Part shown: positions 541 through 56,305 of the stretch, piece by piece
Position numbering within the stretch: position 1 is the stretch's first letter
Layout: each line of letters opens with the position of its first letter
Assembly: GCA_000091205.1 (NCBI GenBank)
Contig: AP006501.2
Strand: one strand, 5' to 3'
DNA: 64,000 bases
DNA from: Cyanidioschyzon merolae
Lineage: Eukaryota
The notes under the pieces: model-generated
The model's input: only the letters and a program-made list of their open reading frames with translations
What the model was told of the DNA's origin: nothing
The model's database searches: none
Program-made: the position numbers and the translations under genes

Positions 541-955
541 TCGGCAAGCGATCCACGTCGTGCGTCTGCGATCAACTCTAGCGCCTACTCGCTTTAGCGC
601 AAGGCTCGGTGTCGAGAGGCTTTAGTCGCGTACCTAAAGCGTCCGTGGATCGGACTCCTGTGAGAGGTTTTCTTGGACAAACAGTTCACTTGCAGCAGAG
701 CGTCGACGCTCTAGACGTTGTGGCTAGCGGAGCTAGGAGCGCTCGAGCGGGCCGTGATCGCTGCTCTGGCTAGCAGTAACTGTGACGCACTCGGCAGAGC
801 CCTGGGCAAACTCTTCGATCTCATACCATAGAGGAACTAGGGATTCAGAGGGCTCGCAAGAAACACTGAATACCAGCGATCTTTCAACAAGCGCCGATTG
901 GTGGCGGCTTGCGTACACACGCATAACCGAGCGCATAGCTTCCACAGCTTAACCC

Positions 956-3169
956 ATGGAACACGAAGCGAACTTGAACGATCTATCACTCGACGACAGG
1001 GGCAAACGAGAGCGTCCAGCACCTGAATCCGAAGCTCCACCCTACGTGAACCATCGGATCAGCTGCTGGGAACGTTTCCGCCAACACAAACAAGGCACAC
1101 TGCTGGGATCAAACGGCAGCAGCGACGAGATTTTGATCAAGCTACCCGATGGCACGAGTACTCGAGGCAAACGGTACGAGACCAGTCCCTGGGATGTGGC
1201 GCAGAGCCTGGGACGTGACCTTGCAGAGCGCTCGGTTGTGGCTCTGGTCGACGGGGAGCCCTGGGACATGAACCGACCGCTAGAGGCTGACTGCAGCGTC
1301 GACTTTCGCTCGTTCGATACTCCCGAGGGTCGAGCTGTGTTCTGGCATTCGACAGCGCACATGCTCGGAGAAGCGATGGAGTACAAATACCACGGTGAAC
1401 TATGCATAGGGCCTCCTGTTGAAGACGGTTTCTACTACGACATCTTTCTCGGTGAGCGAGCGATCACTCCGGAGGACCTCGCCGACCTGGAGCGAAGGAT
1501 TCAGCGCATCATGAAAGACAAGGGGCGTACCTTTGAACGCATGGAGCTCACCAAGAGTGAGGCGTTGGAAATGTTCGGCTACAATCGGTTCAAGTGCGAG
1601 CTCATCGAAAAACTGGGCGAAGGGGAAACAATCACTGCGTATCGCGATGGGCCTTTTATCGATCTATGCCGAGGGCCGCACGTCCCATCCTGCGGCCGTG
1701 TCAAGGCAGTGAAGCTCACCCGCCTCGGACAAGCGTACTGGCTGGGAAAGGCCCAAAACCCGTCGCTTCAACGAGTATACGGTATTTCTTTCCCCGACAA
1801 GCAGCAGCTGAAGGAATGGGAGCGACGGATAGAGGAGGCAGCCAAAAGAGACCACCGCAAAATCGGACGCGATCAGGAGCTGTTCTTTTTTCACCCGTAC
1901 AGCCCCGGAAGCTGTTTCTTTCTGCCACATGGGACACGCATCTACAATCGCTTGTTGGAATTTATGCGCCGCGAGTACTGGAATCGCGGCTATGAAGAGG
2001 TGCTTACCCCGACCGTCTTCGATTTTGCGCTGTGGGAGGCCAGCGGCCACGCGGCGAACTATCGCGAGAACATGTTCAGCTTCGAAGTCGAACAGAGAGC
2101 GTTCGGCCTCAAGCCCATGAATTGTCCTTCTCACTGTCTGATCTATGCGTCTCGTGTGCGATCGCATCGGGAGCTGCCGCTTCGCCTGGCCGACTTTGGT
2201 ATCCTGCATCGCAACGAACTGAGCGGAACCCTGACTGGTCTCACTCGTGTTCGCAAGTTCGAGCAGGACGATGCGCACATATTCTGTACGCCTGCACAGG
2301 TTGAATCAGAAGTTCTCGGTTTCCTGAAATTCCTCGAGCACGTCTACCAGATATTCGGCTTCAAATTTGAGCTCGAGCTCTCTACGCGACCAGAAAAATT
2401 CATGGGCGACCCAGCGCTCTGGGACCGAGCGGAGTCCATGCTTGCGCAGGCACTATGTCAGTTCACAGGCAAACAACGCGACGAACCTGGCGGCTGGCGC
2501 CTGAATCCCGGTGACGGTGCCTTCTATGGCCCCAAAATCGACATCAAACTCTTCGATGCGCTGCAGCGGCGACACCAGTGTGCTACCGTTCAACTGGATT
2601 TTCAGTTGCCAATTCGCTTTGATCTTCGTTACACGGCTGCGGGTGCCAGCACTGAGGACGGCAACGCGGCTGCAAGCGGACCGGTACTGGCACCAGTCGC
2701 GGAGCGCAGCCTCGACACCACCGATGCCACGCCCGAGGACGCCAAAGTCGTTCCCGCCTCGCACGACGTTCATCGGCCCGTGATGATTCACCGCGCGATT
2801 TTCGGCTCATTCGAGCGCTTCATCGCGATCATCACGGAGCACTATGGAGGAAAATGGCCGTTCTGGCTTTCACCGAGGCAGGTTGCTGTCCTGCCAGTGA
2901 GCGATCGATTTCTTCACTATGCGCAGCAGGTGCACCAGCGTATTCACGACGCAGGCTTCTTCGTGGACGTCGATAGCTCCGATCGCAAACTGGCGAAAAA
3001 GATTCGGGAAGCACAACTTGCCCAGTATAACTATATTCTTGTGGTCGGTGAAAAGGAGCAGGCCGACGGAACTGTGAATGTGAGAACACGGGACAATGAG
3101 GTTCACGGTGAGCGTACGATTGATCAAATCATTTCCGAGTTTCGCCAGTTGACAGAGCGATTCCAATAA
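956..3169 (+). CDS. Threonyl-tRNA synthetase (class II aaRS; TGS, editing, catalytic and anticodon-binding domains)
   Basis: Single 737-aa ORF. It has a TGS-like N-terminus (ILIKLPDGTS...), an HxxxH editing-domain motif (HSTAHMLGEAMEY), class II core motifs (RIYNRLLEF..., FGILHRNELSG, GAFYGPKIDI) and a C-terminal anticodon-binding region, with a low-complexity Ala/Asp-rich insertion. Confidence 0.9.
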   Translation: MEHEANLNDLSLDDRGKRERPAPESEAPPYVNHRISCWERFRQHKQGTLLGSNGSSDEILIKLPDGTSTRGKRYETSPWDVAQSLGRDLAERSVVALVDGEPWDMNRPLEADCSVDFRSFDTPEGRAVFWHSTAHMLGEAMEYKYHGELCIGPPVEDGFYYDIFLGERAITPEDLADLERRIQRIMKDKGRTFERMELTKSEALEMFGYNRFKCELIEKLGEGETITAYRDGPFIDLCRGPHVPSCGRVKAVKLTRLGQAYWLGKAQNPSLQRVYGISFPDKQQLKEWERRIEEAAKRDHRKIGRDQELFFFHPYSPGSCFFLPHGTRIYNRLLEFMRREYWNRGYEEVLTPTVFDFALWEASGHAANYRENMFSFEVEQRAFGLKPMNCPSHCLIYASRVRSHRELPLRLADFGILHRNELSGTLTGLTRVRKFEQDDAHIFCTPAQVESEVLGFLKFLEHVYQIFGFKFELELSTRPEKFMGDPALWDRAESMLAQALCQFTGKQRDEPGGWRLNPGDGAFYGPKIDIKLFDALQRRHQCATVQLDFQLPIRFDLRYTAAGASTEDGNAAASGPVLAPVAERSLDTTDATPEDAKVVPASHDVHRPVMIHRAIFGSFERFIAIITEHYGGKWPFWLSPRQVAVLPVSDRFLHYAQQVHQRIHDAGFFVDVDSSDRKLAKKIREAQLAQYNYILVVGEKEQADGTVNVRTRDNEVHGERTIDQIISEFRQLTERFQ

Positions 3170-3229: not shown

Positions 3230-3850
3230 CGGATCTAGCGACTCGAGCCGGTCTCGTGCATTGACGCGTTTCGAGTACCTAGAGACGATAGCGTGTGTGT
3301 CTGTACACCGATTTGCAGACGCCCCCCCCCCCCCCCGGGTTTTGCTCTAAGGGCCCCATGCCATCGGCTTTAGTTTCTTCTCGTGCACCTCGAGCCGGAG
3401 AGGATGTCCAACAAAGCTTGATCGCCTCAGCTCCTCGGGTCTTGTGTTCAGCACCGCACTTCTCCGGATATGGATCGCAGCGTTGAAGTCTCGGTTCACG
3501 AACTCCATGCATGTATTGCCGCTGTGGTTGAATTCACCAATGCAAGGGTTGATAGGACTCGTTCCCTCTGTACCAGTACAGTCTCGTCATCTACCCGTCA
3601 GGCAAACATCTTTTCTGACATATCTCCCCTCTTCGTATGCTCATTCTTCCTGCTCTTCTTCGCTTCATAGTCGACGAGAAGAGGATATTTTTGAAGCATC
3701 CAGCGATGATGACGGCCCTGCGGGATCCCCGACTTGCAAGTCCATACCTTTTCCTTGGATTTTATTTGCACTTTAAATCAACGCACTTGGAATGCACCTG
3801 CTGTAACTCATGAAACCGCTTTTGATACCAGGCACCTGGATATGGAACAC
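3230..3850 (-). mobile_element. Short internally deleted Fanzor/TnpB-like derivative (copy A)
   Basis: The minus strand encodes ...EFVNRDFNAAIHIRRSAVLNTRPEEL..., a RuvC-III-like motif, at about 3480..3530, preceded by a conserved 5' segment at 3700..3850. That segment is homologous at nt level to 27050..27125 and 38330..38400. The short ORF is frameshifted, and there is a poly-C(13) tract near the 3' tail. Confidence 0.6.
3325..3337. repeat. Homopolymer C(13)
   Basis: A direct run of 13 C residues. Confidence 0.95.
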
Positions 3851-4167
3851 CATCGAGTTGATAGCCTAGAATCGGGGAATGGATCTCAGGGCAGCCGCCG
3901 TCGCCGCCGCTGCCGCCGCTGCATCGATCCACTCTCAGCGCAGCGCAGCAGCAGGGCGATGCAGTGCTCATCTGCAACCTCCGAAAACGTCCTACAAGGT
4001 GTTGCGTGAAGTACACGAGCACCTGTTTATCCTGGGGAATTTTCGAGGCAATCGATAGGTGTTTCTTTTTGGGGGCGGCTGCTGCGGCGATCGCTTGCTT
4101 TTTCATAGCGAGCACGGAGAGGCAGGGCTTGTCATCGGAGGGTACCGCTTGCTCCGCCCCCGTCACA

Positions 4168-4719
4168 ATGAGTGCGGGAACAAGTCCCGTCTCACGCAAG
4201 TCTGAGGAAGCAGACGTGGTGAAACCGAGACTTCCCCCGAATCTTCAGTTTCCAGAACGAAATCCTTCAGAAAAATTTGCTGAGATGGTGTTGGAGTCTT
4301 GCGCATTCAAGGCCGTAGCTGCGGCAATCGCTGGTGGCGGTCTTGGCGTTGCCCTGGGACTCTTCATCGGCGGCTTTTCAGCCGAGTTAGATCGGGCTGT
4401 CGAAGCGCAGTCGCCGTGGCGAGAGCAGCTTCGAGCATACGGGAAAGCGCTTGCGGCCCAGATCCGAACGTATTCGAAGAACTTTGCCCTCTGGGGAGCA
4501 ACATACACTATCGCGGAGTGCTCCGTGGAGAAGTACAGGGCGCGTCACGATCTCTGGAATAGCCTCATTGCCGGCTGTGCGACTGGTGCTGTGCTAGCTT
4601 CCCAGCCGCGAGCGTCCATGAGTGCTCGAACGCGCGGCCAGCAGATGTCGGTCGGCTGCCTGGGCGTCGCAGCGTTTAGCTGTGCCATCGACTACTGGCT
4701 AGAGCATCGGCACGCGTGA
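4168..4719 (+). CDS. Tim17/Tim22/Tim23-family mitochondrial inner-membrane translocase subunit
   Basis: About 183 aa from the ATG at 4168. It has GxxxG-rich TM segments (AAAIAGGGLGVALGLFIGGF) and FALWGATYTIAECSVEKYRARHDLWNSLIAGCATGA, typical of PF02466-type proteins. The upstream part of the ORF (3964..4167) is probably non-coding extension. Confidence 0.65.
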   Translation: MSAGTSPVSRKSEEADVVKPRLPPNLQFPERNPSEKFAEMVLESCAFKAVAAAIAGGGLGVALGLFIGGFSAELDRAVEAQSPWREQLRAYGKALAAQIRTYSKNFALWGATYTIAECSVEKYRARHDLWNSLIAGCATGAVLASQPRASMSARTRGQQMSVGCLGVAAFSCAIDYWLEHRHA

Positions 4720-7066: not shown

Positions 7067-7245
7067 TTTTTTCATGGACAAGACGTTCACATAGGCCAGC
7101 GTTCTCCGATTATGCGCATTTTTCTTTTCTTACTTTTCTTGTGTGTTTTCTTTCAGTGCGCGGTGAGGTATCCATCAAACACCCGATCTCCAACGTACAT
7201 TACCGATACCTCTTCTCGGATATTCTGGTCGTTTCGTATCCGCAT
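7067..7245. repeat. About 180-bp dispersed repeat R, copy 1
   Basis: TTTTTTCATGGACAAGACGTTCACATAGGCCAG...CTCCGATTATGCGCATTTTTCTTTTCTT...CAGTGCGCGGT...TTCTCGGATATTCTGGTCGTTTC is shared with 56122..56305. A partial copy (TTCTCGGATATTCT) lies at about 26400..26450. Confidence 0.6.
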
Positions 7246-7398: not shown

Positions 7399-8877
7399 AT
7401 GACAGCGTGGTTACTGGCTCCCTCACCTGTCCATGCACGAAAGATGTTCAGTGCGAGCAGCCGGGTATGTGCGCTTGGAACGGGAAGGCAGCTGCCGGTG
7501 CAGGTGCCGTCGGCTCCGCAGCGAGCGGCACGGCGTACGCGCTCCCGGAAACGCCTCTCGTGCTCAACGGAGACGCACGTGCATCTCGTAGGTTTTGGTC
7601 TCGCTGGGGCAGCGTTAGCGTTTTATCTTTGTGAGCGCGCATCCCAGAGCCAACGGCTGACGATTAGTGTTGTCGACTCGGCCGGTGCGGGCTGTGCTGG
7701 TGGTGCAACGCACGCATCCGCTGGCATCCTGCACCCGTTTACGCCCCGCGGACGAAAGATTTGGCTTGGCGACGAGGGCCTCATTTGCATGCGAGAAATC
7801 CTAGGGGTTATATCTGAGAAAGACTCGTCGCCGGTTGCGCGGCGGAGTGGCCTGCTTCGTCTAGCGACCACCGACCGAGAAGCTGCGGACTATGCCGCAG
7901 CAGCAACGCAAATGTATCCGCAGCAGCTGTACTGGGATGCGGCTCGGAGTCAGCTTTACATTCCCGACGCGTGGGTTGTTGATGCGCCCGCGTACGTACG
8001 TGCCATTCGGCGGTACCTCGAGCGTAACCACTCCGACAAGCTCACGCTCTGGGAGACGCGTGAAGTGCGCTCGGTAGCCGACGAGTGCCGGCGGCTGCAG
8101 AGCCTTGCTGAGGCCAGCTGTGCAGCGGTTACTTTCCTGGTGATTGCAGCTGGCGCCAGCAGCAGGCTTCTGATTCCTTCATTGCCGCTGACATGGTGCG
8201 GTGGCCACAACCTTGTTTTCCGGAGCCAGGACTTGACGTGGCCGTCGCCCGAGTTCGCAGCGGCGAGCACGCTCACTGCCGGGTTTTCGTCAACAAGTGC
8301 ACCAGGCTCCGTGCCCCTGATCGGTCATGGGTCGTATCTGGTACCGACACCTGACGGCACTCGTGTCATTGGCGGTGCAACGAAGGAGTACGGTATGACG
8401 GCAACAGAGGTGCTCAAGGCGCAGTCTCGTTCACCGTCGGAACAGATGGCGCGAGCCACTTCGGCGCTGAGACAGCCTCTCAGTGCACTGCTTGGCAGGT
8501 ATGCAAACCTCGCAGAGCGCTACGCTGCCGGAGAGTCGCCGCTCTCGAATACAGGCATCCTGCGCGATCCGCTTGAGGCGCTCTACGGCGTTCGAGCGCT
8601 TCCGCCACGCAGTGCTCTCGGAGCGGTGCCTCTGCTTGGAGAGATCCAACATGAAGCGCTTTCCATGTTGGCAAGCACAAGCATACCAGAGAATACTCGC
8701 GTCCTGTATTTCACTGGTCTCGGCAGCCGCGGCTTAATCCATCACGGCATTATTGGCCGACTTGCAGCTGATGCTGTACTTCGCGGAGAGTCTGTCGTCT
8801 CGCTTGGCAGCGTGGCAAGTCCCACGGTACTTTCCTCGGTGCGTCGCGCGGCAGCGGCAGCTGTGGCCGCCTCCTGA
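7399..8877 (+). CDS. FAD-dependent oxidoreductase (DAO-like), probable N-terminal targeting peptide
   Basis: 492-aa ORF with a dinucleotide-binding fingerprint (VHLVGFGLAGAALAFYL) followed by DAO-family-like architecture. The N-terminus is R/S-rich. The 3' low-complexity Ala tail overlaps the convergent S17 gene. Confidence 0.55.
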   Translation: MTAWLLAPSPVHARKMFSASSRVCALGTGRQLPVQVPSAPQRAARRTRSRKRLSCSTETHVHLVGFGLAGAALAFYLCERASQSQRLTISVVDSAGAGCAGGATHASAGILHPFTPRGRKIWLGDEGLICMREILGVISEKDSSPVARRSGLLRLATTDREAADYAAAATQMYPQQLYWDAARSQLYIPDAWVVDAPAYVRAIRRYLERNHSDKLTLWETREVRSVADECRRLQSLAEASCAAVTFLVIAAGASSRLLIPSLPLTWCGGHNLVFRSQDLTWPSPEFAAASTLTAGFSSTSAPGSVPLIGHGSYLVPTPDGTRVIGGATKEYGMTATEVLKAQSRSPSEQMARATSALRQPLSALLGRYANLAERYAAGESPLSNTGILRDPLEALYGVRALPPRSALGAVPLLGEIQHEALSMLASTSIPENTRVLYFTGLGSRGLIHHGIIGRLAADAVLRGESVVSLGSVASPTVLSSVRRAAAAAVAAS

Positions 8878-9521
8878 CGGCGCCGTTCCGAGCTGCCAAA
8901 GTTCTCGACCACCACAAACCGTTTCCGTCGACTCAGCGGGCGGCAGAGTCGAATGGTGACCTTGTCTCCAAGAAGACAGCGATCCTCCTCGTCATGAGCC
9001 ATAAACCTACGCGTAACGAAACGGTACGTCTTGATTTTGGGCTCATATCGAAGTCGACGCGCGGCAACGACAACCGTCTTCTGCGGTGCGTTCGAAACCA
9101 CGACGCCGTGAATGCACTGCGCCCGACGTCGCCTCGTGAGGCTCAAGAGGCGCTTACAGAGCACCTCCTGGTTATCGGTGGGTCGCACCAAACCCCCGTA
9201 GGCCCGTAGCGCCTGCTTTAGTTCGTCGAGGCTCAGCGACTGAACTTGTTCGATTGGGGCGCCAAAGTAAGGCGCCGTATACACGGGACCCTGAACAACG
9301 CCTCTTGACTTGGTCGACTCTGAACAGTACCGAGGGAGCACAGCGTGATTCGTAACCAGCAGAAGGCCTGCTCGCCGCGTTCCACTGTCGCACAGCGGTC
9401 CAGTGCGTGGCCCCTGCAGACCTACGCCACTCGCGGAAGCGAGACTGAGAACGTTGCGCCTGACTATACGAGTCAGAGCAGTAAGCGCGCTGTACATTCC
9501 GTGTCCGTACGTGGAAACCAA
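8742..9521 (-). CDS. Mitochondrial ribosomal protein S17 (uS17 fold) with N-terminal SAP-like motif
   Basis: The C-terminal part (GVVVSNAPQKTVVVAARRLRYEPKIKTYRFVTRRFMAHDEEDRCLLGDKVTIRLCRPLSRRKRFVVVENF) matches the uS17 consensus (KTxVV..eR...Hp.Y.K.......y.aHDE...c..GD.V.I.ecRPLSk.K.w.lv). Upstream, LSLDELKQALRAYGGLVRPTDNQEVLCKRLL is SAP-like. Confidence 0.7.
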   Translation of the reverse strand: MVSTYGHGMYSALTALTRIVRRNVLSLASASGVGLQGPRTGPLCDSGTRRAGLLLVTNHAVLPRYCSESTKSRGVVQGPVYTAPYFGAPIEQVQSLSLDELKQALRAYGGLVRPTDNQEVLCKRLLSLTRRRRAQCIHGVVVSNAPQKTVVVAARRLRYEPKIKTYRFVTRRFMAHDEEDRCLLGDKVTIRLCRPLSRRKRFVVVENFGSSERRRQEAATAAAAARRTEESTVGLATLPSETTDSPRSTASAASRPIMP

Positions 9522-9862: not shown

Positions 9863-10204
9863 GTGGAAACCCAGTTATTCATGTCCTGCCAAACAGCGGC
9901 AGACTCGATAGCAACAGGAGTTGTGGGCGTAAGTCTATTGCTTCTGGTGTACTTTTTAAACCTGTTTGGGTACCTGCATGTGCAGCGCTGGCCTGATAGC
10001 GCAGTCTACGCGTCCCTCAACGCAATCGGGAGCGGGCTCTCCGCTGTGGCTAGCGGTCTGATCAGGTACTGGCCTTTTGTAGTATTGGAAGGCGTCTGGT
10101 GTTTGACGTCTCTTGCAGGACTTGGACGCATCTTGTACAGACACTGGAAAGGAAACCATAGCACAGCGAGCGCCGACGGAAGCAACACGAAAGACACAGG
10201 TTGA
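9863..10204 (+). CDS. Hypothetical small multi-pass membrane protein
   Basis: 113-aa ORF with hydrophobic, Gly-zipper-like segments (GVVGVSLLLLVYFLNLFGYL, NAIGSGLSAVASGLIRYWPFVVL). No family assigned. Confidence 0.25.
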   Translation: METQLFMSCQTAADSIATGVVGVSLLLLVYFLNLFGYLHVQRWPDSAVYASLNAIGSGLSAVASGLIRYWPFVVLEGVWCLTSLAGLGRILYRHWKGNHSTASADGSNTKDTG

Positions 10205-10492
10205 GTGAGCGCAGCTGGTACCCGAGACACCCGCGCTGCGACCGTGTTGGCAGTAACGCGAGTGCATACATATACACCAGCGGGCCTTTCGAGACGAACA
10301 CTCGGATAGGCCCCCGGTGCAATGATATATACGCACCGACCGTGCGCTGTTTGATTCAGGGGCGACCCTTTGCTTGGTCTCGTGGTGACTAAGTTTTGTT
10401 CCTTGTCGCCGGCACCATGGCTGTCAGCGTGTGCCGTGGAGGCCGAGCTATCGATTGAAGTTTTTCTGAACGAGCGCCTCGTAGGCGCCTGT

Positions 10493-11011
10493 CTACTGAA
10501 CGGAACACCAGCCCCGCGAAAAATACGGTTTAACAACCTCCGCGGTCGTCGCCGGTTGCGCCACCGTGCCAGTGCTGGAGCCACTGGTTCGTGCTGCTGC
10601 TGCTGCTGCTGCTGCTGCTTCCTTGCTGTGGGGCAGCTTTGACCCCTTGTCCTTCTTCTTCGGTTTGGAGGCCCCGGCTCCGGTGCTCTTTGGTGCTTTC
10701 TGTGACTTGGGCTTTTTCTTCTCTATTTTGTCCGGACGACGCTGCGCCGTAGCTTTGCTTTTCCGCGACAACTTGGACTCCCGTTCTAGTTTCAACGGTA
10801 TGGGCTCCCGTTTCGCTGCGCGGGCGGCTGCGGCAGCCGCGGCGGCGGCACGAGCCGGTGTTCGTCGCGGTGTGGGTAGTGGCGCCTCAGCCGTCGTGGG
10901 GCCGGCGGGTGCCGCCCTCGAAGGCAGCGCCGCCGTTGCCGCTTTTTTGTGCGGAATTTTTTGAGATTTTTTCTCTTCAGACTTGGTGCTTGATTTCATT
11001 TTCACGGTCAT
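10493..11011 (-). CDS. Hypothetical Lys/Ala-rich low-complexity basic protein
   Basis: The ORF from ATG 11011 encodes KKKPKSQKAPKSTGAGASKPKKKDKGSKLP with poly-Ala stretches and has no globular domain. It starts directly after the minisatellite and the 3' end of Fanzor-like copy B. It could be element-associated or spurious. Confidence 0.25.
   Translation of the reverse strand: MTVKMKSSTKSEEKKSQKIPHKKAATAALPSRAAPAGPTTAEAPLPTPRRTPARAAAAAAAAARAAKREPIPLKLERESKLSRKSKATAQRRPDKIEKKKPKSQKAPKSTGAGASKPKKKDKGSKLPHSKEAAAAAAAAARTSGSSTGTVAQPATTAEVVKPYFSRGWCSVQ
10593..10619. repeat. (CTG)9 microsatellite
   Basis: Direct read of gctgctgctgctgctgctgctgctgct. Confidence 0.9.
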
Positions 11012-11039
11012 AGAGGGTTGAGAGGGCCTTTCGTTATAG

Positions 11040-11200
11040 AAGAACGCGAAAACGTGGACCAAGCGCGCGACGTAACGCATTCGTGCGTGCGCGCGCGAAT
11101 TCGTGCTTGTGCGCGCGCATTCGTGCGTGTGTGCGCGCTCTCGTGCGTGTGTGTGCGCGACGTAACGCATTCGTGCGTGTGTGCGCGCCTAGCGGCGACA
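11040..11200. repeat. Imperfect 22-bp minisatellite (about 6 units), alternating CG/TG
   Basis: GCATTCGTGCGTGTGTGCGCGC-like units repeated. It lies at the 3' end of copy B and is read through in frame as (AHTHE...)n. Confidence 0.8.
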
Positions 11201-12124
11201 TCTTTTTCATTGACAAAACGTCTCCAACTGACGTGCAGGCGCCTCCCAGTCTTTTCGGACCGGCCACCCACTACTGCTTCCAAATTCTTCTCATATAGTT
11301 CCACTTTGAGAGGTTGTCCAACAAAGTTCTCCCGTGTCAGCTCTGGAGGTCTATTCTCCAGCACAGGACATCTCCGTATATTGATAGCGGCGTTAAAGTC
11401 TCGATTCACAAACTCCATACGCTTCTTGCCGTCATTGGTTGTACTCACTAATGCAAGGAGTCCACGAACGTTCGCCCTCCTTTTCATTTGCTCCTCCGTC
11501 AGCGGTCCGTACTTTGCTATTTCCTCAGCGCTCCGCTGACACGTTTCCATCCCCACTCGCTGAAGTGTACATCCCAGTTCATGGTGTGTATACGATGTTC
11601 GAAACTCATCTATCGGTATCGTAACGAAACGCCGTGCACACTCCTTGTACGTTCTTGTCGTCGGAGCTGGCGTAGTTTTTTTTGGGTCTTCCAACACCCT
11701 GCCCTATACGCTACTGAGAGCCTCTGACTTTCATCCTCTATGAGGGCACTCAACTGATTGAAAAAGTTGGCAAACGCCCGCTGGTTACCACAATACAGAT
11801 TCATTCGCAAACGAGCCCATCTGGGCTTTGTATACTCCTCCGGCAGCGCATCCCAATGGGCAAAACGAACTTCCATGAATTTCCGGAAAGCTTCAAAGTC
11901 CGCTCCTCGGCTGGTCACCTCGCTCAAAGCTTCCAGGTGATCCTTCATTCCTGAATTCTACGTACAAATTTTCTTCCTCGCATTCATTATACCGGATTCT
12001 CGATTGTATCTCGCTCTCGAGAACCTCAAAAGGCGCATGTCTTTCTGACGTAAGTTGCCGTCAGTACCATCTTCCGCACGCTGCGGTGCTGCGATGGTGA
12101 TGATATTTGTGTTTCCGGGGTCAG

Positions 12125-12430
12125 CGCCAACGACAAAGTCGTTCTCATGCACTTTCTGCACCGCAGGACCCGCCTCCTTCTTTTCTTCATGCTTCGCCGC
12201 GTCAACCATAAAGTCGTTATTCTCCATCTCCTGCGCCGAAGGATCCGCCTTCTTCTCATCTTCATCCTTCGCCACGTCAACGACAAGGTCGTTATCCTCC
12301 ACCTCCTGCGTAGCAGGATGCTCCTCTTTGTTTTCTTCATCCTTCGTCACGTCAACGACAAACTCGGTATCCTCCACCTCCTGCATCACAGGATCCTCCT
12401 CTTTGTTTTCTTCATCCTTCGTGACGGGCG
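12125..12430. repeat. 96-bp tandem repeat (about 3.2 units) inside copy B coding region
   Basis: The unit tcttcatccttcgccacgtcaacgacaaggtcgttatcctccacctcctgc...ctcctctttgttttc is repeated. On the minus strand it encodes repeated [20 protein letters not shown] units ending in the RuvC-I motif [10 protein letters not shown]. Confidence 0.8.
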
Positions 12431-14559
12431 CGGCCGAGGGCGGGACTGGCCCATCTGTCTTCAACCGCCGGTGGTGTACACACATGGCTACCCCATCGAT
12501 TTCGATCAACCTAGTGAATACCTTTTGTTTTGCTCGAATTGAGAAGTTTGAAATCGAAGATATTCCCCCAGTACGTCTCACGGTTTTCACCGGGGAACTC
12601 TGTCTTCCTTACACCGAACTCCGGACTGATCTGCCTCATGATGCCGTGAAGGACTGCGGAGTCGATAGTCACAAAATGTGACTTGATGTTGCACAACGGA
12701 ACCACGTTGAAGCGCTTCCCCATTAGGGCAGCCCTCCGTCTCTACCACTCTTCATTTGTCTCTTCACTCAGCTTCATCTCTGCCTTGTGTTCGAGCTCTC
12801 GGTCGAGAAACACAAAATATCGCAGGAGGAGGCGATAGTATCTTTCCTTGTCTTTTTTTCAACTCTGATATCTTGTCTGTTGGATTCGCCAGCCCCAGTA
12901 CCGCACGATGCTCTTGTTTAGCCACACGGATTACAGAAGCTTCATTCGTGCTCTCGTTTGGCGCCTTCTTATCGACGAATTCGACCTCATCTTCATGCTT
13001 GCGATCGTCCGTGATGCCGTTGGTAATCGCCCGTACGCCTTTGCGATAGATGGCCCGGTACGGCGCACACACGGCGCGTATCATGAAACGTTCGAGGCTC
13101 ATCGTCAATTGGTTCTCCAGGTTCGTGAGGTACTTCATCGCCCCGTATGTGTAAATATTTCCGTCACCGCTGTATCGATTATCCTCGAAGCTGTAAAAGG
13201 GATGTTTTTCATGGAGGGCATCCACTAGCACATTTTCCTTCCGCGCTTCTGCTGTACCAAGCATCAGCTGTCGAATAAAGGTCTTGTCCAAGAAATCGTC
13301 CGGAATCTCGACCGTTTCAATATGCGCCACGTCTTCGTACATCTGCCTCGCCAAATGCATCACTCCTGACGACGCCTTGACAATGCTCTTGGAGTACTAG
13401 TCGACAAGTTTTTCGATAGCGTCTCGCAACTTTTCCGTGTACGGATTCTTGATATGTTTAAGAAGACCAGCTTTCACCACCATCTCGTCGTACAGTCGTC
13501 TTTCTTGCCGCCTTCGACGTAGGGCCTCCCGTTTTCGGTTCCTCTTCTCTTCTTTTTCTTCTGGACTCGGCACTGTTTTTTGTTTTTTTTCTAGCAGCCG
13601 GCGACCCTGGGCCTCCAGGATCGTGGACTTGCTTTTTCAAGACTTTCCTTTTCTAGTTTTTTTGGAAAAGAACGCTCCTTGAACCCTTCTGTTATACGCT
13701 ACGAAAAACACTTGACTAGACTTGTTTGAGGGTTGAAACACAAATGAACTGAAAACTTTATTTTTGTTCGAATCCTACGCGAATACAACTTTTACAGCTG
13801 AACATCACGCTAGAGATCAGGATCGCGTTTTCCTTCAACGGCGGCATGCGCATCCTGTCTCATGCTTGCCTGATCTCCCAGGAACGCTCATTTAGCGCAC
13901 TGCGTGCACCGCGCGAGACGCCTCACCGATCGATGAAGGACACGTGTCCGACACCCCGCCTTGGCACATGCGTGTTCGCATCGCGCTGGAGCGAAAATCA
14001 AGTGTCCTAGATCGTGAACTCACGTAGAACGATCTCTTGCTGTAGGCTCTGTCGCTGGTGCCGACGCTACTGCCCATCGCAGTACCGTCCTGACATACAA
14101 GGGGATGCAGGGGCCTGGTACGATACCCGTCGACGCGTCTATCAAACGCGTAGCGTTCTCTGCGGCTTACGCTTGTGCGGATGAGATATGCATCACTCTA
14201 CTCATTAGAAATTTCGTTACATTTATTGATCGTAAACAAACAAGGTACGGTAGTGTTCCCCAACACGGATACAAGTTTATTTCATTTGCTTGTTATACAT
14301 GCCGCACGGACGCTGGAATAAGGAACTAACCTGAATTTTGCTTCCACCCGGCGTCACGGGCTGGAACTGATGGCGCTTCAAGTCATTTCCATGCTGCTGT
14401 CGTTGTTCAACTTATGGTGCCTGCATCGTCCTCCGGATCCGGTGATCTTGGCCGAGGCATACCACACATATAGCGTCCAGATCTGCCACGACGTTTGAAC
14501 ATTGCATCTCGCCTGGCATGATCGACACGCTTGAGAAAAGCGCATACTGTATTCTGGTC

Positions 14560-15100
14560 TACTCTATCAGATTATATACAATTGCCTAACCCGTACATCG
14601 ACGACCGCAGACCAACAACAAACGCCTTCCAAAAGAAAAACGTTTTCGCCAGCCGTGTACAGTAGTGGCGCTCTGCGCGCCCCAGACGAAACGTCTCAAT
14701 CTACCAGTCCGCAGACGCCTCTCAGGCTTTGTTGAACGGCCGACTGGTATCGATCTCAGCTTCTCCTTGTACAATTCGAGACTGGGAGGCTGTCCCACAC
14801 CAAAGTTGACATGCCACAGCGCCACGGATCTCGTCTTCAGAACCGCACATCCCCTGATATTGCTAGCAGTGTTAAAGTCTCGGTTAACAAACACCATGCG
14901 TTTATTGCCTCTTCTTGAACTTGTCCATGCAAGGAGTCGTCGAAGTCATGCCCTCACTGCCATTTAGTGCTCTATCAGCTCTCCGTGCTTTTCTGTCGCC
15001 GAAGCGCCCCGCTGGCTCTTCTCTATCTCATTCTTCTGAAGTGTACACCCGGGCTCATCCCTTGATTTTTCAAAATGAAGAAACTTGTTTATATCTTTAA
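14560..15100 (-). mobile_element. Fanzor/TnpB-like 3' fragment (copy C)
   Basis: Minus-strand ORF 14586..14897 encodes MVFVNRDFNTASNIRGCAVLKTR...GQPPSLELYKEKLRSIPVGRSTKPERRL...ATTVHGWRKRF. The upstream antisense ORF 14915..15100 parallels 11439..11624 and 29152..29337 (zinc-finger region). The copy is 5'-truncated. Confidence 0.6.
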
Positions 15101-16009: not shown

Positions 16010-17052
16010 TCAGACACAGAGTTGCGCTCGAGCGCGCCTGATCCATGCGTTTGGATCGAAGCCAGCCGCTTTTCGAGCAGTCTCGTTTCGTACGAGCGGA
16101 TCTGGATATCGTTCTTCGGGACTCTGAGCGATGTCAAGCGCTCGTGCACTGGGCATGTCGACCACGATTCTTTTCCCGTCGGTTGGAGAACGCTGGTCAA
16201 GCGCAGACCCGCCTCTGCTCCCTTGTGCCGGATGCACGTTGACGCGGACCTTGTCGTCAGCGCCCAGCTGTGGAGGACGCTGTGCCCCGGGCGCCTTAGA
16301 AAGCGCCGACTGCTGCGCTCGCGTTCCGCCCCTGCCGGTGTCGTTTCGGAGCGCTGCCTGCAGCCGACGTGTTCGTTCGTGCTCTTCGGCTAGGCGCCTT
16401 TGTCGCTCTTCCTCCTCGTCTTCCCGAGCTAGTGCTGCTAGACGAGTCTGCCGTGCTCGCTCATCGGCTGCTAGCTGGGCTGCTTCGGCCTGCTCTCGCT
16501 CCTGCCATTTCAGTTGGTTCCGGCGGATCAGTGCTGCGTTCTCCTTGCGGTAAGCGGCGATTCTTTCATTCGTCCGCTCGACATCGATACCGTGCACAAG
16601 ATTGAAGATGAGCTCTTCGACCATTTCCAGATAGTCCTCGTATTCTTGATCGCTAGTAAAGTCGTCCCGCAACTTGTTGAAATCGCGCAGAATGCGCCGG
16701 CGGATCGACTTTTCGCGTTCCAGTTCCTCTTCCAGACGAGACACCCAGTCTGAGGTCTGCTCCGAGCCGCCGACCGAACGCTCCATTTCGCCGCTGTTCA
16801 CGCAACCCGAACGGACTTTTCTCGTTCCACTGCTTGTTTCAGACGGGAATCCCAGCCCGAAGCCTGAACTGAGCCTGCGGCGCGGCACTTCATACAACCG
16901 TCGTTCAGGTAACTGTGTTCGATGGATACCAGCGGTGGGTACGTGCGTACATCGAGGCGTTCGCGTTCCTCACGACGGTGTCCTTGGTGCCTGCATTGTT
17001 CGCCACGCTCGTGTCGGCATAGAATGCAACGGATCCGGGAACTCGGGCGCAC
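16010..17052 (-). CDS. MAT1: CDK-activating kinase assembly factor MAT1-like (degenerate RING + MAT1 domain); putative 56-nt intron at 16757..16812
   Basis: ILRDFNKLRDDFTSDQEYEDYLEMVEELIFNLVHGIDVERTNERIAAYRKENAALIRRNQLKWQ matches the MAT1 core. Upstream ORF 16798..17052 has a RING-like CxxC...CxH..H...CxxC. Its in-frame stop can be removed by a GT...AG intron (56 nt) that joins ...VEREKS to TSDWVSRLEE.... Confidence 0.65.
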
Positions 17053-18434: not shown

Positions 18435-19211
18435 ATGCGGAGTGAGTGGCCCTTCGACTATGCGTCGGAGGCTGACGCCATGCTCCACCGGATAACGCCG
18501 GAGAACTTTGAGAAACTGGTGCGGTTTGCTGCCCGTTTGTTGCGTGTGGGCGAGATCATCGCCTTGCCGACCGACACGGTTTACGGGTTGGCTGCAGCGG
18601 CTCGCAACTCGCACGGCATTGAGCTGTTGTACCAGACGAAGCAGCGAGACTTGCGAAAGCCGCTAGCAATTGCAGTTCCTTCGGTAGAGGACGTTTCGGT
18701 ATACCTGCACACGGAACACTTGCCTCCGGGACTGCTCGAGGCGATCTTGCCGGGGCCACTGACGCTGCTTCTGCGCCAGCGAGAGGACTACGTGGGCATA
18801 GACCTTCAAGACGTGCGTATCGACCAATACAGGGGCTGGGAACGAGCCAAGCGGCTGGCGCCGAACCTAAACCTCAGGCGGGACGGTCTACTGGGGGTGC
18901 GCGTCCCGGACGCTTCCTTCGCCTGCGCGGTTTCCCGCGAACTCGGTGACCCGCTGGCGTTGACGTCTGCGAATGTCAGCGGTCGTGGAGACTGCGGCAG
19001 TGTTGATGAGTTTCGTGCGCTCTGGAGTGCATGCGCTGCAGTATTCGACGGAGGCGCTATGCCGAAACCCGTTATGCCGAGCACCGTCGTGGACCTGAGC
19101 GTACCCGGCACATTTCGCATCACACGTGCAGGCTGGATGGCGACAGACCTCGTTCGTATTCTGGAAAATAAATTCGGGCTCACGAACAAGAGCGCGAATA
19201 CGAGCAACTAG
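18435..19211 (+). CDS. YrdC/Sua5-family L-threonylcarbamoyladenylate synthase (t6A biosynthesis)
   Basis: 258 aa. Has the YrdC hallmark (IALPTDTVYGLAAAA), RKPLAI and LTSANVSG motifs. Confidence 0.8.
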   Translation: MRSEWPFDYASEADAMLHRITPENFEKLVRFAARLLRVGEIIALPTDTVYGLAAAARNSHGIELLYQTKQRDLRKPLAIAVPSVEDVSVYLHTEHLPPGLLEAILPGPLTLLLRQREDYVGIDLQDVRIDQYRGWERAKRLAPNLNLRRDGLLGVRVPDASFACAVSRELGDPLALTSANVSGRGDCGSVDEFRALWSACAAVFDGGAMPKPVMPSTVVDLSVPGTFRITRAGWMATDLVRILENKFGLTNKSANTSN

Positions 19212-19730: not shown

Positions 19731-20987
19731 CTAGCGATGTTCGCCGAGCGCGTGCCTCAGGAGGGGCGCACTCCAACCTAACAGCGCTGCATTCTGTAGA
19801 TGCGTATCGGCAATCATTTGAAAGAGTTCCCGGGTGCCGTGGCGTGACCTTTGGAGCCACAGCTCCAGATCCCCACGCATTTCATCGCCCGAGCGATCAT
19901 ACGCGGGCAACGCTCGCATAAGACAGGCATCCTCGAGCTGTGATTGCGTAAGAGTCTGCAGCCCGTCCCGCTGGAGCGCATCATCAAGGCACGCGAGTTC
20001 CGTAAAATGTCGTGCAAGCCGCTTCCGCAGCGAACGTGAGAACGATATCGGGAACGCGGGTTGTGCGAACAGCCTGCAGAGGGCGATCAACTCTGGTCGG
20101 CTGCACGAGCGCAGAGCACCGTCCAGCGTCTCCGCAGCGATGCTTTCAACACACGGAAAGGTTCCTAGGGCGTTCGCACTCACTTCTGGGTCGGTACGGG
20201 TAGCGAGCGCACGCCACAGCACCAGATGGGCCTCAATGTAGCGGATCCCTTGCATCCGCAATTGCATCTGGCGGTCCTCTTCGGTGGTGAATGTTGTCGG
20301 TTTAAAGCCCGGTATCGCTTCGGCTAGGACGGGGATCAATGCCGTCGAGATGAGGCTCACGGAGAGCAGCAGGAACGCTCGCAAGCGATCGTGACGGGTC
20401 TGAATGAGGAGCAAATGCTCCGGATAGGAGAGCGCCTCGTGGCCTCCTTTCGATAAACGCTTCTCCAGTTGTCCCGCCTGCTTCATATTCCGATACAGTT
20501 GTAGAGATCCGCGAGTGTAGGTGCGTGCACCTTCTCGAAATGTCTCCCATGCTCGTTGGAGGCGACGCCACCACGGTGCTGCGCTATCGCGTCCCGCGGG
20601 AGTTTGCTGACTCGGCTCTGTAGCCACTGCCTGACTCTTTTTGGCATCTCCCTCTCTGCCGCTTGCTTCACTGAGAAGTACCCGACCAGAAAACTGCCTT
20701 TCGGTCCGAACAGGACAGAACAGGCGAGGGTTCCGCAAGGACCAGCGTCCGCTGTATACCAGAGCGAGCGGCCTCCGCTGAACAAGTTCGGCACCGCGTC
20801 GAGAGCCACAACCCTCGAAACTGCCCACAACGAGCCCCAGCGCCCACTGATGGACGAACTGCCGTCGCAGCCTTGCCGTCATAGACGAAAAGCGCAAACC
20901 CTGGACAACGAGTCGGGGAACGTCAGGGAGACAATCGCTGGGAGCTCGTTTACCGCTGTGGCGGCGAGTCGCTGAGCGCTTCTGCAA
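19731..20987 (-). CDS. LETM1-domain protein (mitochondrial, LETM1/Mdm38-like)
   Basis: 418 aa. WWRRLQRAWETFREGARTYTRGSLQLYRNMKQAG, followed by a TM segment (LLLSVSLISTALIPVLAEAIPG) and further C-terminal sequence (...RLFAQPAFPISFSRSLRKRLARH...), resembles LETM1 ribosome-binding domain topology. Confidence 0.55.
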   Translation of the reverse strand: MQKRSATRRHSGKRAPSDCLPDVPRLVVQGLRFSSMTARLRRQFVHQWALGLVVGSFEGCGSRRGAELVQRRPLALVYSGRWSLRNPRLFCPVRTERQFSGRVLLSEASGREGDAKKSQAVATEPSQQTPAGRDSAAPWWRRLQRAWETFREGARTYTRGSLQLYRNMKQAGQLEKRLSKGGHEALSYPEHLLLIQTRHDRLRAFLLLSVSLISTALIPVLAEAIPGFKPTTFTTEEDRQMQLRMQGIRYIEAHLVLWRALATRTDPEVSANALGTFPCVESIAAETLDGALRSCSRPELIALCRLFAQPAFPISFSRSLRKRLARHFTELACLDDALQRDGLQTLTQSQLEDACLMRALPAYDRSGDEMRGDLELWLQRSRHGTRELFQMIADTHLQNAALLGWSAPLLRHALGEHR

Positions 20988-24323: not shown

Positions 24324-26591
24324 TCACACGAACCCACGCAGCGACAAGAAACACAGGGCGGTGAGCGCGGCGGATACCGGAACGGTAACAAACCAACTAA
24401 GGAGAATGTTCAGCAGGACACGGCGATTCACGGAGCCACGACCCGTCGCCAGTCCCATCGCCACAATGGATCCAATGAGCGTGTGTGTTGTCGACACGGG
24501 CATGCCGATCTGCGTGGCCATGAGCACCGTCAACGCTGTGGATAGCTCGACACAAAAGCCTCTCGTCGGTACAAGGTGCGTGATCTTCTTGCCTACAGTG
24601 TCCATCACGGGACGTCCCCAGACGCCGAGTCCGAACGAGATTCCGAGTCCTCCAAGAACCAGCGCCCACGGCGGTACCAGTACTTCACCGGAGACCGCAG
24701 CGCTGCCGCCACTGCGATACACCGCTAAGATGCTCGCAAAGGGACCGATGGCATTCGAGACATCATTGGACCCGTGGCTGAAACTCACAAAACACGCCGT
24801 AAGCAGCTGAAGAATCGAGAACACCTGTTCAATAATGTCATGCTGACGCTTCCGAGCATACGTTGTCAGACTCAAAGACGTTGACGACATCACGATATCC
24901 ATGGTCGTTGGCACGTATTCACAGGTTGGCAAGAGCTGGATATCCTCACTCCAGTGCGCTCCTGACGAATACTCATCTTCATTTGTGCTCTCCTCGTTCG
25001 CTTGAAGCGCACCGAATGCGGCTAGCGCGACTGCGGCGGCCTCACTGGCGTCAATTTTACGCCCATTGCCGCGAATATTCTCCCGTGGGATGCTTCTCCG
25101 CACAAACTGTTTGCTGTGGATGAAGCTCGTCAGAGCGCCGGAAACTCCAGCCCCCAGCGCAGCCACACCGAAGGAGCTCGCAACAGCCTGAAACAATGTC
25201 CATCCTGTCGAATGCTCACTCTCCAGTTGCAAGAATAGAGTCAGGATGAAGAGCATCGAGCCGCACAACGTCGGCAGCCAGCGACGCATCGCTCGAGTCG
25301 GACGCGGCGCATCGATGATCGTTTGCCGGATGAACCGGAATAGCAGCCATGCCACAACGCCGCCCATCAACGGCGAAATGATCCAGCTCAGAACGATACG
25401 TAGAACTGCTTCCCACTGGATTTTCCAGCCAGAAATCATGCCGAGGCCAATAAGTGAGCCCACAACCGAGTGTGTCGATGACACTGGCAAGCCGTAGCGA
25501 GTAGCTAGACCCAGCCACATGGTGCATCCCACTAACACACAGAGCATTCCCAACATGTAGAGAGATGGCGAAGTTGCAACAGCACCAGATATGGACACTA
25601 CTCCTGTAGATATGGTCTTGGTGACTGTCGAACCAAATAGGACAGCACCAGCGAACTCGCAAACAGCGCCTATGGCAAGCGCCTTGCCAATAGATACCGC
25701 CCCGGTTCCTACTGATGTGCCAAGGGCATTGGCCACGTCATTTGCTCCAAGCGCTGCAGAGAGTAAGAACGCTATGCAAAGCGATAAGCAAACAAGCACA
25801 AAAGGCGACAAAATGTGACCGGATAGAGTACCGGCAGCTGCACTGGCAGCATCCGCCACAAGCGAGGCGTTTAAACGGAAACCACGCTGCGTCGTCTGCC
25901 GCGGTGCGGTCCAGCGAGCACGTTCCCGCAACGACTCTCGCACTCGCAGCCATGTCGGTGACAATTGAGCTGCTCTGATACCATAATTTCTACAAGAAAA
26001 GCACGAAATGGAAGAACGATGAGCGCGAGTCGACCCCGAAAGCTCGCTCCTAACTGCAAGGCGACCAGGATGCACAGGCAAACAAAGCGCCCTCTGAGCT
26101 GGTCCACTGACCACGTATGCCAGGTGAGGCGGTCGCCCGCCGCATTTACCCGGTCTCATGGACACCTGTAAGCGCCTATAGTTACCGCAAACGTCACGAA
26201 TCGCGCCTAGGCCCCTTTGGTGACACACAGCCAAACGCTTGTCCTTTTGCACGGAGCACGCACGAGACACGCATGTATGCACGCAAGCACTGCACGCACG
26301 CACGCACGCACGCACTGCGCGCAGGACGCTCGTACCACTGCCTGACGCTTTGGGTGGCGCTCGATTCGCGCGCGATGAGGCACCCATCGTTCCATCTACT
26401 TCCAAGTTCCATAACCCATACTTCTTCTCGGATATTCTTGTTGCTTCACGTCTTGTTTTGTGCAGCGAGTGCTTGCAGTGAGCTCCCACGATAGCACCTA
26501 TATCATCGGTGCGGTCGTTGCACAGAAGCAGGACGGGTTTGTCGTACCACAGATGGCGTCGGCACGAGCGGGTAGACTGATACCCACGCAC
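24324..26591 (-). CDS. PiT-family (PHO4) sodium/phosphate symporter; N-terminal boundary uncertain
   Basis: Both PiT signature repeats are present (GANDVANALGTSVG and GSNDVSNAIGPFA), with multiple TM segments. The first roughly 190 aa of the ORF are not transporter-like, so the true start or an intron is unresolved. Confidence 0.8.
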   Translation of the reverse strand: MRGYQSTRSCRRHLWYDKPVLLLCNDRTDDIGAIVGAHCKHSLHKTRREATRISEKKYGLWNLEVDGTMGASSRANRAPPKASGSGTSVLRAVRACVRACSACVHTCVSRACSVQKDKRLAVCHQRGLGAIRDVCGNYRRLQVSMRPGKCGGRPPHLAYVVSGPAQRALCLPVHPGRLAVRSELSGSTRAHRSSISCFSCRNYGIRAAQLSPTWLRVRESLRERARWTAPRQTTQRGFRLNASLVADAASAAAGTLSGHILSPFVLVCLSLCIAFLLSAALGANDVANALGTSVGTGAVSIGKALAIGAVCEFAGAVLFGSTVTKTISTGVVSISGAVATSPSLYMLGMLCVLVGCTMWLGLATRYGLPVSSTHSVVGSLIGLGMISGWKIQWEAVLRIVLSWIISPLMGGVVAWLLFRFIRQTIIDAPRPTRAMRRWLPTLCGSMLFILTLFLQLESEHSTGWTLFQAVASSFGVAALGAGVSGALTSFIHSKQFVRRSIPRENIRGNGRKIDASEAAAVALAAFGALQANEESTNEDEYSSGAHWSEDIQLLPTCEYVPTTMDIVMSSTSLSLTTYARKRQHDIIEQVFSILQLLTACFVSFSHGSNDVSNAIGPFASILAVYRSGGSAAVSGEVLVPPWALVLGGLGISFGLGVWGRPVMDTVGKKITHLVPTRGFCVELSTALTVLMATQIGMPVSTTHTLIGSIVAMGLATGRGSVNRRVLLNILLSWFVTVPVSAALTALCFLSLRGFV
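26292..26316. repeat. (GCAC)6 microsatellite
   Basis: Direct read of gcacgcacgcacgcacgcacgcac. Confidence 0.9.
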
Positions 26592-27125
26592 AGGCGCCTC
26601 GCAGTGTTTTTTGACCGGCCCTCTGCTATCGGTAGTAATGCTTGTCCGTGCACGTTTCGAGTCTGAGAGTCTGTCCCATTAAGTAAGATGGCCTAATTTC
26701 GTCAGCACTCGTCTTCATCCCCACACATCGTCTGATATTCATGGCGGTGGTGACGTCTCGGTTCACGAACGCTATTCGTGCATTGACACTGATTGAACGC
26801 ACCAATGCAATGATTGCTAGAACTCGCGTACCCAGCGCCACTGACGCCTTGTTGTCGCCCCATTCTACAAATACCTTTTCTCGTGTCTTGCCCTTCTTCT
26901 ACTTTTCATCGTCATTTGCGCTTCTTCGGTCTATTGTCGGTGGGAAGAGGCTTTTTTCGTTTTCTTCCTGCAACCGGCGATGGTGGCCCTCCTGGATCCC
27001 CGACTACCATGTGCGTACGTTTTCCTTGGATTTTTTTTGTTTCATCAAATGAAGACACTTCGAATGCATCCGCTATACACCGCGAAAAAGCATTTGATGA
27101 CATACACATTGACCTGGAACTCCAT
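26570..27125 (-). mobile_element. Short internally deleted Fanzor/TnpB-like derivative (copy D)
   Basis: Minus-strand ORF 26912..27109 encodes the 5' region MCMSSNAFSRCIADAFEVSSFDE...GDPGGPPSPVAGRKRKKPLP (NLS-like). Downstream ORF 26626..26841 encodes FVNRDVTTAMNIRRC...QTLRLETCTDKH (RuvC-III + tail). Both are homologous to copies A, B and F, and the middle of the gene is missing. Confidence 0.6.
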
Positions 27126-27801
27126 TTATGTGAAGGACTGTAATGATGGCGCTGTCGTGGCGAACGCTTTGCTTGACTATGCGATGCGCAGCGTCAGCAT
27201 GCTCACCGGTACGTCATCGACCGCCGTAGCAGTGGCTGCTGTATCAGAGCGTCCTGGAAACAACAAGGCGCTTCTGCTGGCCTCGTTCTCGAGCCGCATT
27301 TTGTGTCCCGGACGTATGGTGCCTGCAAGCAACAGTCGTTTACGTTGAGACTATCTGCCCATAGATGCCGACTGTCTAGACTCAAAGCTCGGCTAGGGCG
27401 CAAGTCCCATGAAACTCGCTGCTCTCTTGCGCCTTGTCCTCTTTGCGAGGCGCTGGATTGCCAGTCGCCGTCGTTCCACACTCAATTACAAGCGTCTCGA
27501 ATGATGCGGGCAAGCGCTACGACTCAAATGGACTACAGTTCCGTAACTGGGTGACTCGCATGCCGGTATTCGACACGCGTTAGATACAGGTGCTCAGGGA
27601 TGCCCCGAGCATGACCCCTTCAATACATCACGTGACGAATGCATTGAAGAAGAATTCTTTCGATTATTCCCCAGTAGACATGAGCATGTCGTCTCCAGCC
27701 GAACCTTTCGCTCACTCACCATTTGCTCCGATGCAATTCACGTCATGCTCGGATGTGTATATGCATTCCAGCACATGTCCAATTCGTGGCGTTATTAGAT
27801 T

Positions 27802-56121: not shown

Positions 56122-56305
56122 TTTTTTTCATTGACAAAACGTGTGCATAGGCCAGTGCTCTCCGATTATGCGCATTTTTCTTTTCTTTCTCTTTTATTTT
56201 GTGTTTAACTTCAGTGCGCGGTAATGTATCTATAAAGCCCCCTACCTCCAAGTTACATTACCTATGCTGATTCTCGGATATTCTGGTCGTTTCATACTTC
56301 CTATC
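56122..56305. repeat. About 180-bp dispersed repeat R, copy 2
   Basis: TTTTTTTCATTGACAAAACGTGTGCATAGGCCAG...TCTCCGATTATGCGCATTTTTCTTTTCTT...CAGTGCGCGGT...TTCTCGGATATTCTGGTCGTTTC is shared with 7067..7245. Confidence 0.6.

Follow-up and report, generated by a model that had tools for sequence, protein, structure and literature searches.

The 64,000-nucleotide stretch of DNA analysed here (contig AP006501.2, hereafter the window) comes from a nuclear chromosome of Cyanidioschyzon merolae 10D and carries, between ordinary eukaryotic housekeeping genes, the remnant of a Fanzor1 transposon. An earlier note, made from the letters alone, had placed at 11008-13700 a near-full-length Fanzor/TnpB-like gene of an undescribed lineage. 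We found that a Fanzor/TnpB-type RuvC gene is indeed readable on the minus strand of this eukaryotic nuclear locus and at that place, but that the element runs from 13898 to 11212. It is almost certainly a decayed, immobile copy of CMe-1A, the Fanzor1-carrying element of C. merolae. Its parts are the following.

11212-13898, minus strand: CMe-1A-type Fanzor1 transposon remnant, corresponding to positions 649-3107 of the 3169-bp consensus
13641-13898, minus strand: 5' untranslated or leader part of the element (consensus ~649-905)
11212-13640, minus strand: degenerate Fanzor1 open reading frame (ORF), its lesions mapped against the CMe-1A consensus
12489-12506, minus strand: WED-domain IETDGV motif, IEIDGV in the window (T>I); the Asp of TDG is invariant in 42 relatives
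12128-12421, minus strand: in-frame 75-bp tandem repeat, 3.9 units (Tandem Repeats Finder) against one in the consensus
12111-12128, minus strand: RuvC-I motif GADPGN, by translation; Asp codon GAC at 12122-12120
11691-11717, minus strand: canonical RuvC-II strand SVAYRAGCW (consensus VVAYGAGRW), with no acidic residue
11593-11616, minus strand: PIDEFRTS with the shifted catalytic Glu, codon GAG at 11607-11605
11407-11592, minus strand: degenerate zinc-ribbon (TNB/NUC) segment with two Cys only
11377-11406, minus strand: RuvC-III motif NRDFNAAINI, with its Asp encoded by GAC at 11400-11398
11063-11187: 20/44-bp CACACGCACGA-type tandem repeats in place of the element's 3' tail; not in the family consensus

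Over 2456 aligned columns, window positions 13898 to 11212 share 86.4% DNA identity with the CMe-1A consensus (blastn and pairwise alignment), and the similarity of the window to five independent metagenome copies (L001, L003-L006) stops at the same two ends. The minus-strand ORF pieces (11008-11697, 11610-11948, 11958-12590, 12511-12723, 12764-13363, 13397-13573 and 13458-13640), joined across the frame changes, yield a TnpB/Fanzor-like protein of about 800 amino acids (an 802-residue reconstruction) that matches the published CMe-1 protein (MEKEVEDPGGP…WRRFV); matches to relatives reach E = 0 in tblastn and phmmer, far above chance. The family was reported in the first description of Fanzors (Bao and Jurka, 2013, Mobile DNA 4:12; PMC3627910) as the one Fanzor1 family of C. 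merolae, with around 150 copies, each at about 80% identity to a consensus some 3 kb long, without terminal inverted repeats (TIRs) or a transposase, with undetermined target site duplications and with a 5' stretch of 635 bp common with the repeat TE-N2_CMe; the 3169-bp consensus DNA and the 734-residue protein are given in its supplements, including Additional file 2. Identity of about 80% or more over most of the consensus, in C. merolae, was taken as the mark of a CMe-1A copy, and the window sequence shows it. Judged by sequence, the feature is one copy of this published family and not a new lineage, because the consensus matches the window and independent copies share its ends.

The agreement with CMe-1A thus extends to host, protein, the picture of copy number and divergence and the lack of TIRs and transposase. 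The window copy differs from the consensus in missing the 5' 635-bp module and the last 62 bp, in having three additional 75-bp units and in carrying eight disabling lesions. As its similarity begins only at consensus ~649-671 and the flank upstream is unrelated, it would be either a 5'-truncated CMe-1 copy or one of a subtype devoid of the TE-N2_CMe module. Our literature search for Fanzor in Cyanidiophyceae after 2013 and for DUF8286 found no papers.

Among about 5.8 billion proteins searched, we detected 22 close relatives (57-80% identity), all from Joint Genome Institute (JGI) hot-spring metagenomes, and a distant one, P0023 (32% identity). The latter matches PF07282 (Cas12f1-like TNB; E 2.9e-5) and, directly, SpuFz1 (E 8.6e-4) and GtFz1 (E 6.7e-3). 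The profile built from close relatives only (A1) gave a weak SpuFz1 match (E 0.076), and a second homologue search with that alignment brought in no new diversity, its output being filled with near-identical Cyanidiales copies. At E<=1e-3, 2752 relatives were detected when 1.84 billion cluster representatives were searched with a profile. The profile of 42 diverse members (A4), two CMe-1 proteins included, matches PpFz1 (4.8e-22), SpuFz1 (1.4e-14) and GtFz1 (1.3e-8) in the PDB and nothing else at E<1; 6 of the 42 members match PF07282. Precomputed annotations assign PF26935/DUF8286 to the wider clade.

The structural comparison points the same way. AlphaFold2 (AF2) run on the shallow A1 alignment gave an uninformative model (predicted local distance difference test, pLDDT, 33), whereas the A4 alignment gave for the relative P0005, with 70-77% identity over the aligned pieces, a model with a mean pLDDT of 76 and a predicted TM-score (pTM) of 0.71, in which disorder is confined to the repeat insert and the C-terminal tail. 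In a Foldseek search of this model against the PDB the top seven matches are SpuFz, PpFz and GtFz structures (E 1.9e-12 to 5e-7, probability 1.00), followed by Cas12o, Cas12i, Cas12b, ISDra2 TnpB, CasΦ and Cas12f. The predicted WED-REC-RuvC fold matches the solved Fanzor1 structures and, together with the profile, identifies the family as Fanzor1. The setting is likewise that of a eukaryotic, multicopy transposable element, at least 471 related stretches being present in metagenome contigs.

With SpuFz1 (8GKH), PpFz1 (9CF0) and GtFz1 (9CER), CMe-1 has in common the WED-REC-RuvC architecture, the Asp of DPG, the shifted Glu in DE(F/Y)xTS and the Asp of RD.NAA, yet identity is only 12-17%, the CMe-1 clade is devoid of the CxxC…CxxC zinc ribbon and the window copy is a pseudogene. 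ISDra2 TnpB (8H1J) is a more remote match with the same RuvC fold (Foldseek E 1.3e-2, probability 0.99). The TnpB genes of IS200/IS605 and IS607 elements resemble CMe-1 in their position on the 3' side of the mobile element that carries them and in the structured RNA-like sequence at the right end. In contrast to them, the window sequence has no OrfB_IS605/OrfB_Zn_ribbon match and no TnpA, the Glu occupies the shifted site, the host locus is eukaryotic and nuclear, and a long N-terminal extension with a basic stretch is present. As to that stretch, the segment resembling a nuclear localization signal in the earlier note holds up in part: the in-frame ...ARKKTK/VPSPEEKEEKRNRKREALRRRRQERR is still basic, but NSAESRRKRRE is out of frame across 13593. 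In another setting, the gene of P0023, with its zinc ribbon intact, is found immediately downstream of a DDE_3/HTH_38 Tc1/mariner-like transposase gene on a metagenome scaffold of the European Nucleotide Archive (L002, 220-3036), a layout known from other eukaryotes as the Fanzor1-in-Mariner arrangement.

The codons of all three putative catalytic residues survive in the window copy. Across the 42 aligned members there is no variation in the DPG Asp or the DEF Glu and almost none in the RD.NAA Asp (D232, E404 and D473 in P0005 numbering; D431/E603/D672 in the consensus). In the hidden Markov model (HMM) alignment the triad motifs fall on IDPNKRD, LLDEYKTS and NRD of SpuFz1, whose D383, E541 and D606 bind metal in the cryo-electron microscopy structure (PMC10432273), so that the alignment of the D/E/D motifs with RuvC catalytic residues, on which the earlier note had staked its reading, is borne out. 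RuvC-I and RuvC-III had been placed correctly. RuvC-II had been read as ALIEDE, which is wrong, since the real strand is SVAYRAGCW and the working Glu lies in PIDEFRTS; such a 'rearranged' site, with a canonical RuvC-II strand lacking an acidic residue, is a hallmark of Fanzors (PMC10530073; also Yoon et al.). The zinc finger, described earlier as degenerate, does retain two Cys only; a CxxC…CxxC ribbon between RuvC-II and RuvC-III occurs in many Fanzors and TnpBs, though not in all. However, the two-Cys segment is also found in the consensus and in about 40 of the 42 clade members, CxxC…CxxxC being kept only by P0023 and P0300, and the loss is therefore a trait of the clade and not decay of this copy. 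Almost all of the wider clade is without the zinc-ribbon Cys while keeping the D/E/D triad.

Far from being a near-full-length gene, the window copy is a pseudogene; the three or more frameshifts noticed earlier do exist, but its ORF has in all suffered four frameshifts, gained three stops and lost its start. The start codon has changed from ATG to TTG (13640-13638). The frameshifts are of 1 bp each (+1 at 13593, 12859 and 12531; -1 at 11678/9), and the premature TAG stops, at S81 (13399-13397), E299 (12744-12742) and W485 (11960-11958), are single-base substitutions of the consensus sense codons TCG, GAG and TGG. The stop codon is gone as well, the final sense codon being GTC at 11214-11212 (…WRRFV), and because of this loss the ORF 11008-11697 overruns the true C-terminus at 11212; the last 62 bp of the element, its 3' tail, are missing, and the reading continues into the repeats at 11063-11187. 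The missing intact ORF makes the copy a pseudogene of the Fanzor1 family, not a non-member. Its dN/dS ratio against the consensus is 0.38 (728 codons), which fits a lineage under purifying selection before this copy died; purifying selection was remarked on for the CMe-1A family by Bao and Jurka (PMC3627910).

The same insertion, flanks included, is found in three hot-spring metagenome contigs (L071, L075 and L077; 97-99.5% identity), which were compared with the window over 10012-12883. L077 reads GAG and TGG at two of the window stop sites and does not have the 12531 insertion, L075 has one of these two stops, and L071 is like the window; the 11678 deletion is common to all three. Lesions are thus present or absent in a stepwise manner among orthologous loci, and are therefore real mutations accumulated in place, not introns or assembly errors.

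Directly upstream of RuvC-I the window copy contains the 75-bp tandem repeat, which encodes VxKDEExKEExPAxQEVEDNDxVVD. Its three extra units form a 225-bp insertion relative to the consensus and account for about 75 residues; a long frameshifted reading, put at about 850 amino acids in the earlier note, does exist, but the consensus protein has 734. The repeat numbers from about one to five units among family ORFs (regular-expression count; P0001-P0154), and the AF2 model of P0005 shows this part as disordered. It is a variable number tandem repeat (VNTR) tolerated inside a nuclease gene, each unit repeating the start of the RuvC-I strand (NDFVV).

Intact copies of the family end in a conserved tail, for which we compared 80 metagenome loci, fetched with the C-terminal 171 amino acids of the consensus, and two further fragments from the window. 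In about 50 independent copies a conserved two-hairpin module of ~75-85 nt follows the stop codon. Hairpin 1 has a GGCG…CGCC stem and a variable loop, its base including the stop codon TAG paired with CTA; after the single-stranded ACTACTGTACAC comes hairpin 2 in one of two variants, CGTTCGA-CTT-TCGAACG, lengthened by G·U pairs, or CGTTTTTC-TTTT-GAAAGGCG, both of which fold; GTTnGnTG and then unrelated flank follow. Hairpin 1 was recovered by RNAalifold, 15 sequences showing a CG<->GC swap. Hairpin 2 was assessed by per-sequence folding and with a hand-given structure of both hairpins, in which pairing holds for 84% of cells, compared with 31-70% once the partners are slid, with double changes at 9 pairs; the per-sequence mean folding energy is -22.7 kcal/mol for the sense and -18.3 kcal/mol for the antisense strand. 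These data lend modest support to the conservation of an RNA structure on the sense strand at the element's right end, which is where the omega-RNAs of Fanzor and TnpB end (PMC10432273, PMC10530073). A scan of the whole window against Rfam at gathering thresholds gave no match. By this analogy with Fanzor and TnpB the tail is the leading candidate for the 3' portion of an omega-RNA; equally, it may serve transposition in cis. It is gone from the window copy, and inside the window it is kept only by the fragments 14605-15058 and 28963-29640. In one metagenome copy (L038) the linker-plus-hairpin-2 module of the tail is duplicated, CCGCCACTACTGTACACGCCCGACGTCGTTCGACTTTCGAGCGGCGTT being present as a tandem pair.

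Several results weigh against this picture. Neither the seven ORF pieces nor the 802-residue reconstruction has a relevant Pfam match, phmmer of the reconstruction against PDB sequences returned nothing, and family membership rests on profile and fold evidence obtained via relatives, the structure model being that of P0005 and not of the window reading itself. The zinc-ribbon cysteines of the solved Fanzor1s are missing in the CMe-1 clade, and no report of nuclease or RNA-binding activity of any CMe-1 protein was found in the literature searched. As for the tail, RNAalifold recovered hairpin 1 only, since the alignment does not bring the two variants of hairpin 2 into register; covariation support is modest and comes from related sequences, and the mean z of folding is only -1.5. 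Together with the pLDDT of 33 of the first AF2 model, the misses in Pfam and the PDB are what would be expected if short motifs had been assembled by chance in repeat-derived sequence that is not TnpB/Fanzor at all. For the single sequence the Pfam miss, named in advance in the earlier note as grounds for giving up its reading, formally occurred (PF07282 and OrfB_IS605 are not matched by the window sequence, and only distant relatives reach PF07282), but the profile and fold searches overturned it. The A4 profile matches solved Fanzor1s exclusively, with E down to 5e-22, Fanzor1s head the fold search with a probability of 1.00, P0023 matches PF07282 and SpuFz1 directly, and the window sequence belongs to a family placed in the founding Fanzor alignment. 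The chance-motif explanation is thereby refuted, and we give it practically no weight.

The possibility that the Fanzor gene works, its apparent frameshifts and stops being due to introns, programmed frameshifting or errors of assembly, could draw on the position of three of the four 1-bp indels in or beside A-runs (13593, 12859 and 11678), as sequencing errors also produce, and on the introns acquired by Fanzor genes in other eukaryotes (PMC10530073). Against this, the stops are substitutions of sense codons, the initiating ATG has become TTG, and neither the stop codon nor the 3' tail remains. Every frame change is a 1-bp indel in a continuous consensus alignment, which leaves no segment to splice out, and independent metagenome assemblies repeat the -1 at 11678, the other lesions being nested and stepwise. 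Also weighing against such a gene is that C. merolae has only about 27 introns in all and that its 10D genome sequence is finished to completion. The consensus lesion mapping and the orthologous metagenome loci led us to reject introns or sequencing errors as an explanation for the broken frame, and a working gene at this locus is highly improbable. We consider it just as improbable that the remnant was domesticated or exapted, for example as a regulatory RNA or as the promoter or 5' untranslated region (5'UTR) of the downstream lysine/alanine-rich ORF 10493-11011. The insertion is kept at the same locus in several environmental populations and lies ~200 bp upstream of this ORF on the same strand; however, retention across 1-3% divergence is expected of any neutral insertion, and lesions accumulate freely between strains. 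None of the ORF pieces of the element is annotated or present in a collection of 15 billion proteins (exact look-ups), and the downstream ORF, too, is unmatched in Pfam and lacks an exact counterpart in that collection. A decayed CMe-1A copy accounts for the locus best.

At least nine further CMe-1A-related fragments were found in the 64-kb window. Most are 3' pieces, a 5'-truncation bias that may reflect the way in which the element moves, and three old copies of a 'mini' type are 67-70% alike.

14605-15058, minus strand: second, older 3' fragment (consensus 2737-3169, 72% identity), two-hairpin tail kept
28963-29640, plus strand: third 3' fragment (consensus 2506-3169, 87% identity), two-hairpin tail present
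45469-45700, plus strand: further 3'-terminal fragment
3352-3853, 26581-27127 and 37850-38404, minus strand: mini copies
7188-7238, 26393-26568 and 56241-56694, plus strand: pieces of the TE-N2_CMe module (consensus ~82-534) without the Fanzor part

In the mini copies the same internal deletion joins consensus ~832-969, made up of 5'UTR and about 21 initial codons, to the RuvC-III region at ~2850-3020, which suggests, from the shared junction, a non-autonomous CMe-1 derivative subfamily; no mention of it was found in the 2013 paper (PMC3627910).

The assignment of the window to C. merolae 10D is given by three long ORFs that are residue-identical to its proteins. The eukaryotic surroundings claimed earlier, MAT1 among them, are confirmed by the genes listed below, and the ORFs neighbouring the remnant, checked for a transposase, do not include one.

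Window ORF identical to BAM82821: threonyl-tRNA synthetase
Window ORF identical to BAM82823: DadA-like oxidoreductase
Window ORF identical to BAM82830: ribonuclease III-like protein
3964-4719: Tim17
7399-8877: FAD oxidoreductase
8742-9521, minus strand: ribosomal protein S17
10493-11011, minus strand: the lysine/alanine-rich ORF of 172 residues downstream of the element, with poly-Ala runs and a (TGC)9 microsatellite (10566-10640)
16010-16897, minus strand: MAT1
18435-19211: Sua5
19731-20987, minus strand: LETM1

By analogy with SpuFz1, GtFz1 and PpFz1, an intact CMe-1 protein would form a complex with an omega-RNA transcribed from the element's 3' end. As in the characterised Fanzor1s, the protein-RNA complex would cut guide-matching DNA next to a target-adjacent motif (TAM), and such cutting may favour retention or spread of the element. 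The window copy, having lost start, frame, stop and hairpin tail, is capable of none of this and is a fossil between housekeeping genes. Whether the CMe-1/DUF8286 (PF26935) clade is a large zinc-ribbon-less Fanzor1 branch that still acts as an RNA-guided nuclease, with the two-hairpin tail and its intervening ACTACTGTACAC as the guide-proximal end of the omega-RNA, is a tentative proposal which we think somewhat unlikely.

As a discovery the locus matters little, as the copy is a pseudogene of a known family, and family, host, copy number and consensus have all been published in the Fanzor-defining paper (PMC3627910). The case nevertheless illustrates that reading motifs without tools can recognise a Fanzor where Pfam is blind, and it documents the stepwise decay in situ of one insertion across natural C. 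merolae-like populations, a small time series. The clade-wide loss of the zinc ribbon, the two-hairpin 3' tail and the in-frame VNTR before RuvC-I were not found described in the literature searched, and these features could guide the study of Fanzor from a thermoacidophilic alga. If the tentative proposal of a still active clade were true, the 75-bp VNTR and the mini copies would have arisen as side effects of continuing activity, the window copy would remain only a fossil, and intact C. merolae copies would, given their thermoacidophile host, represent heat-tolerant eukaryotic OMEGA nucleases.

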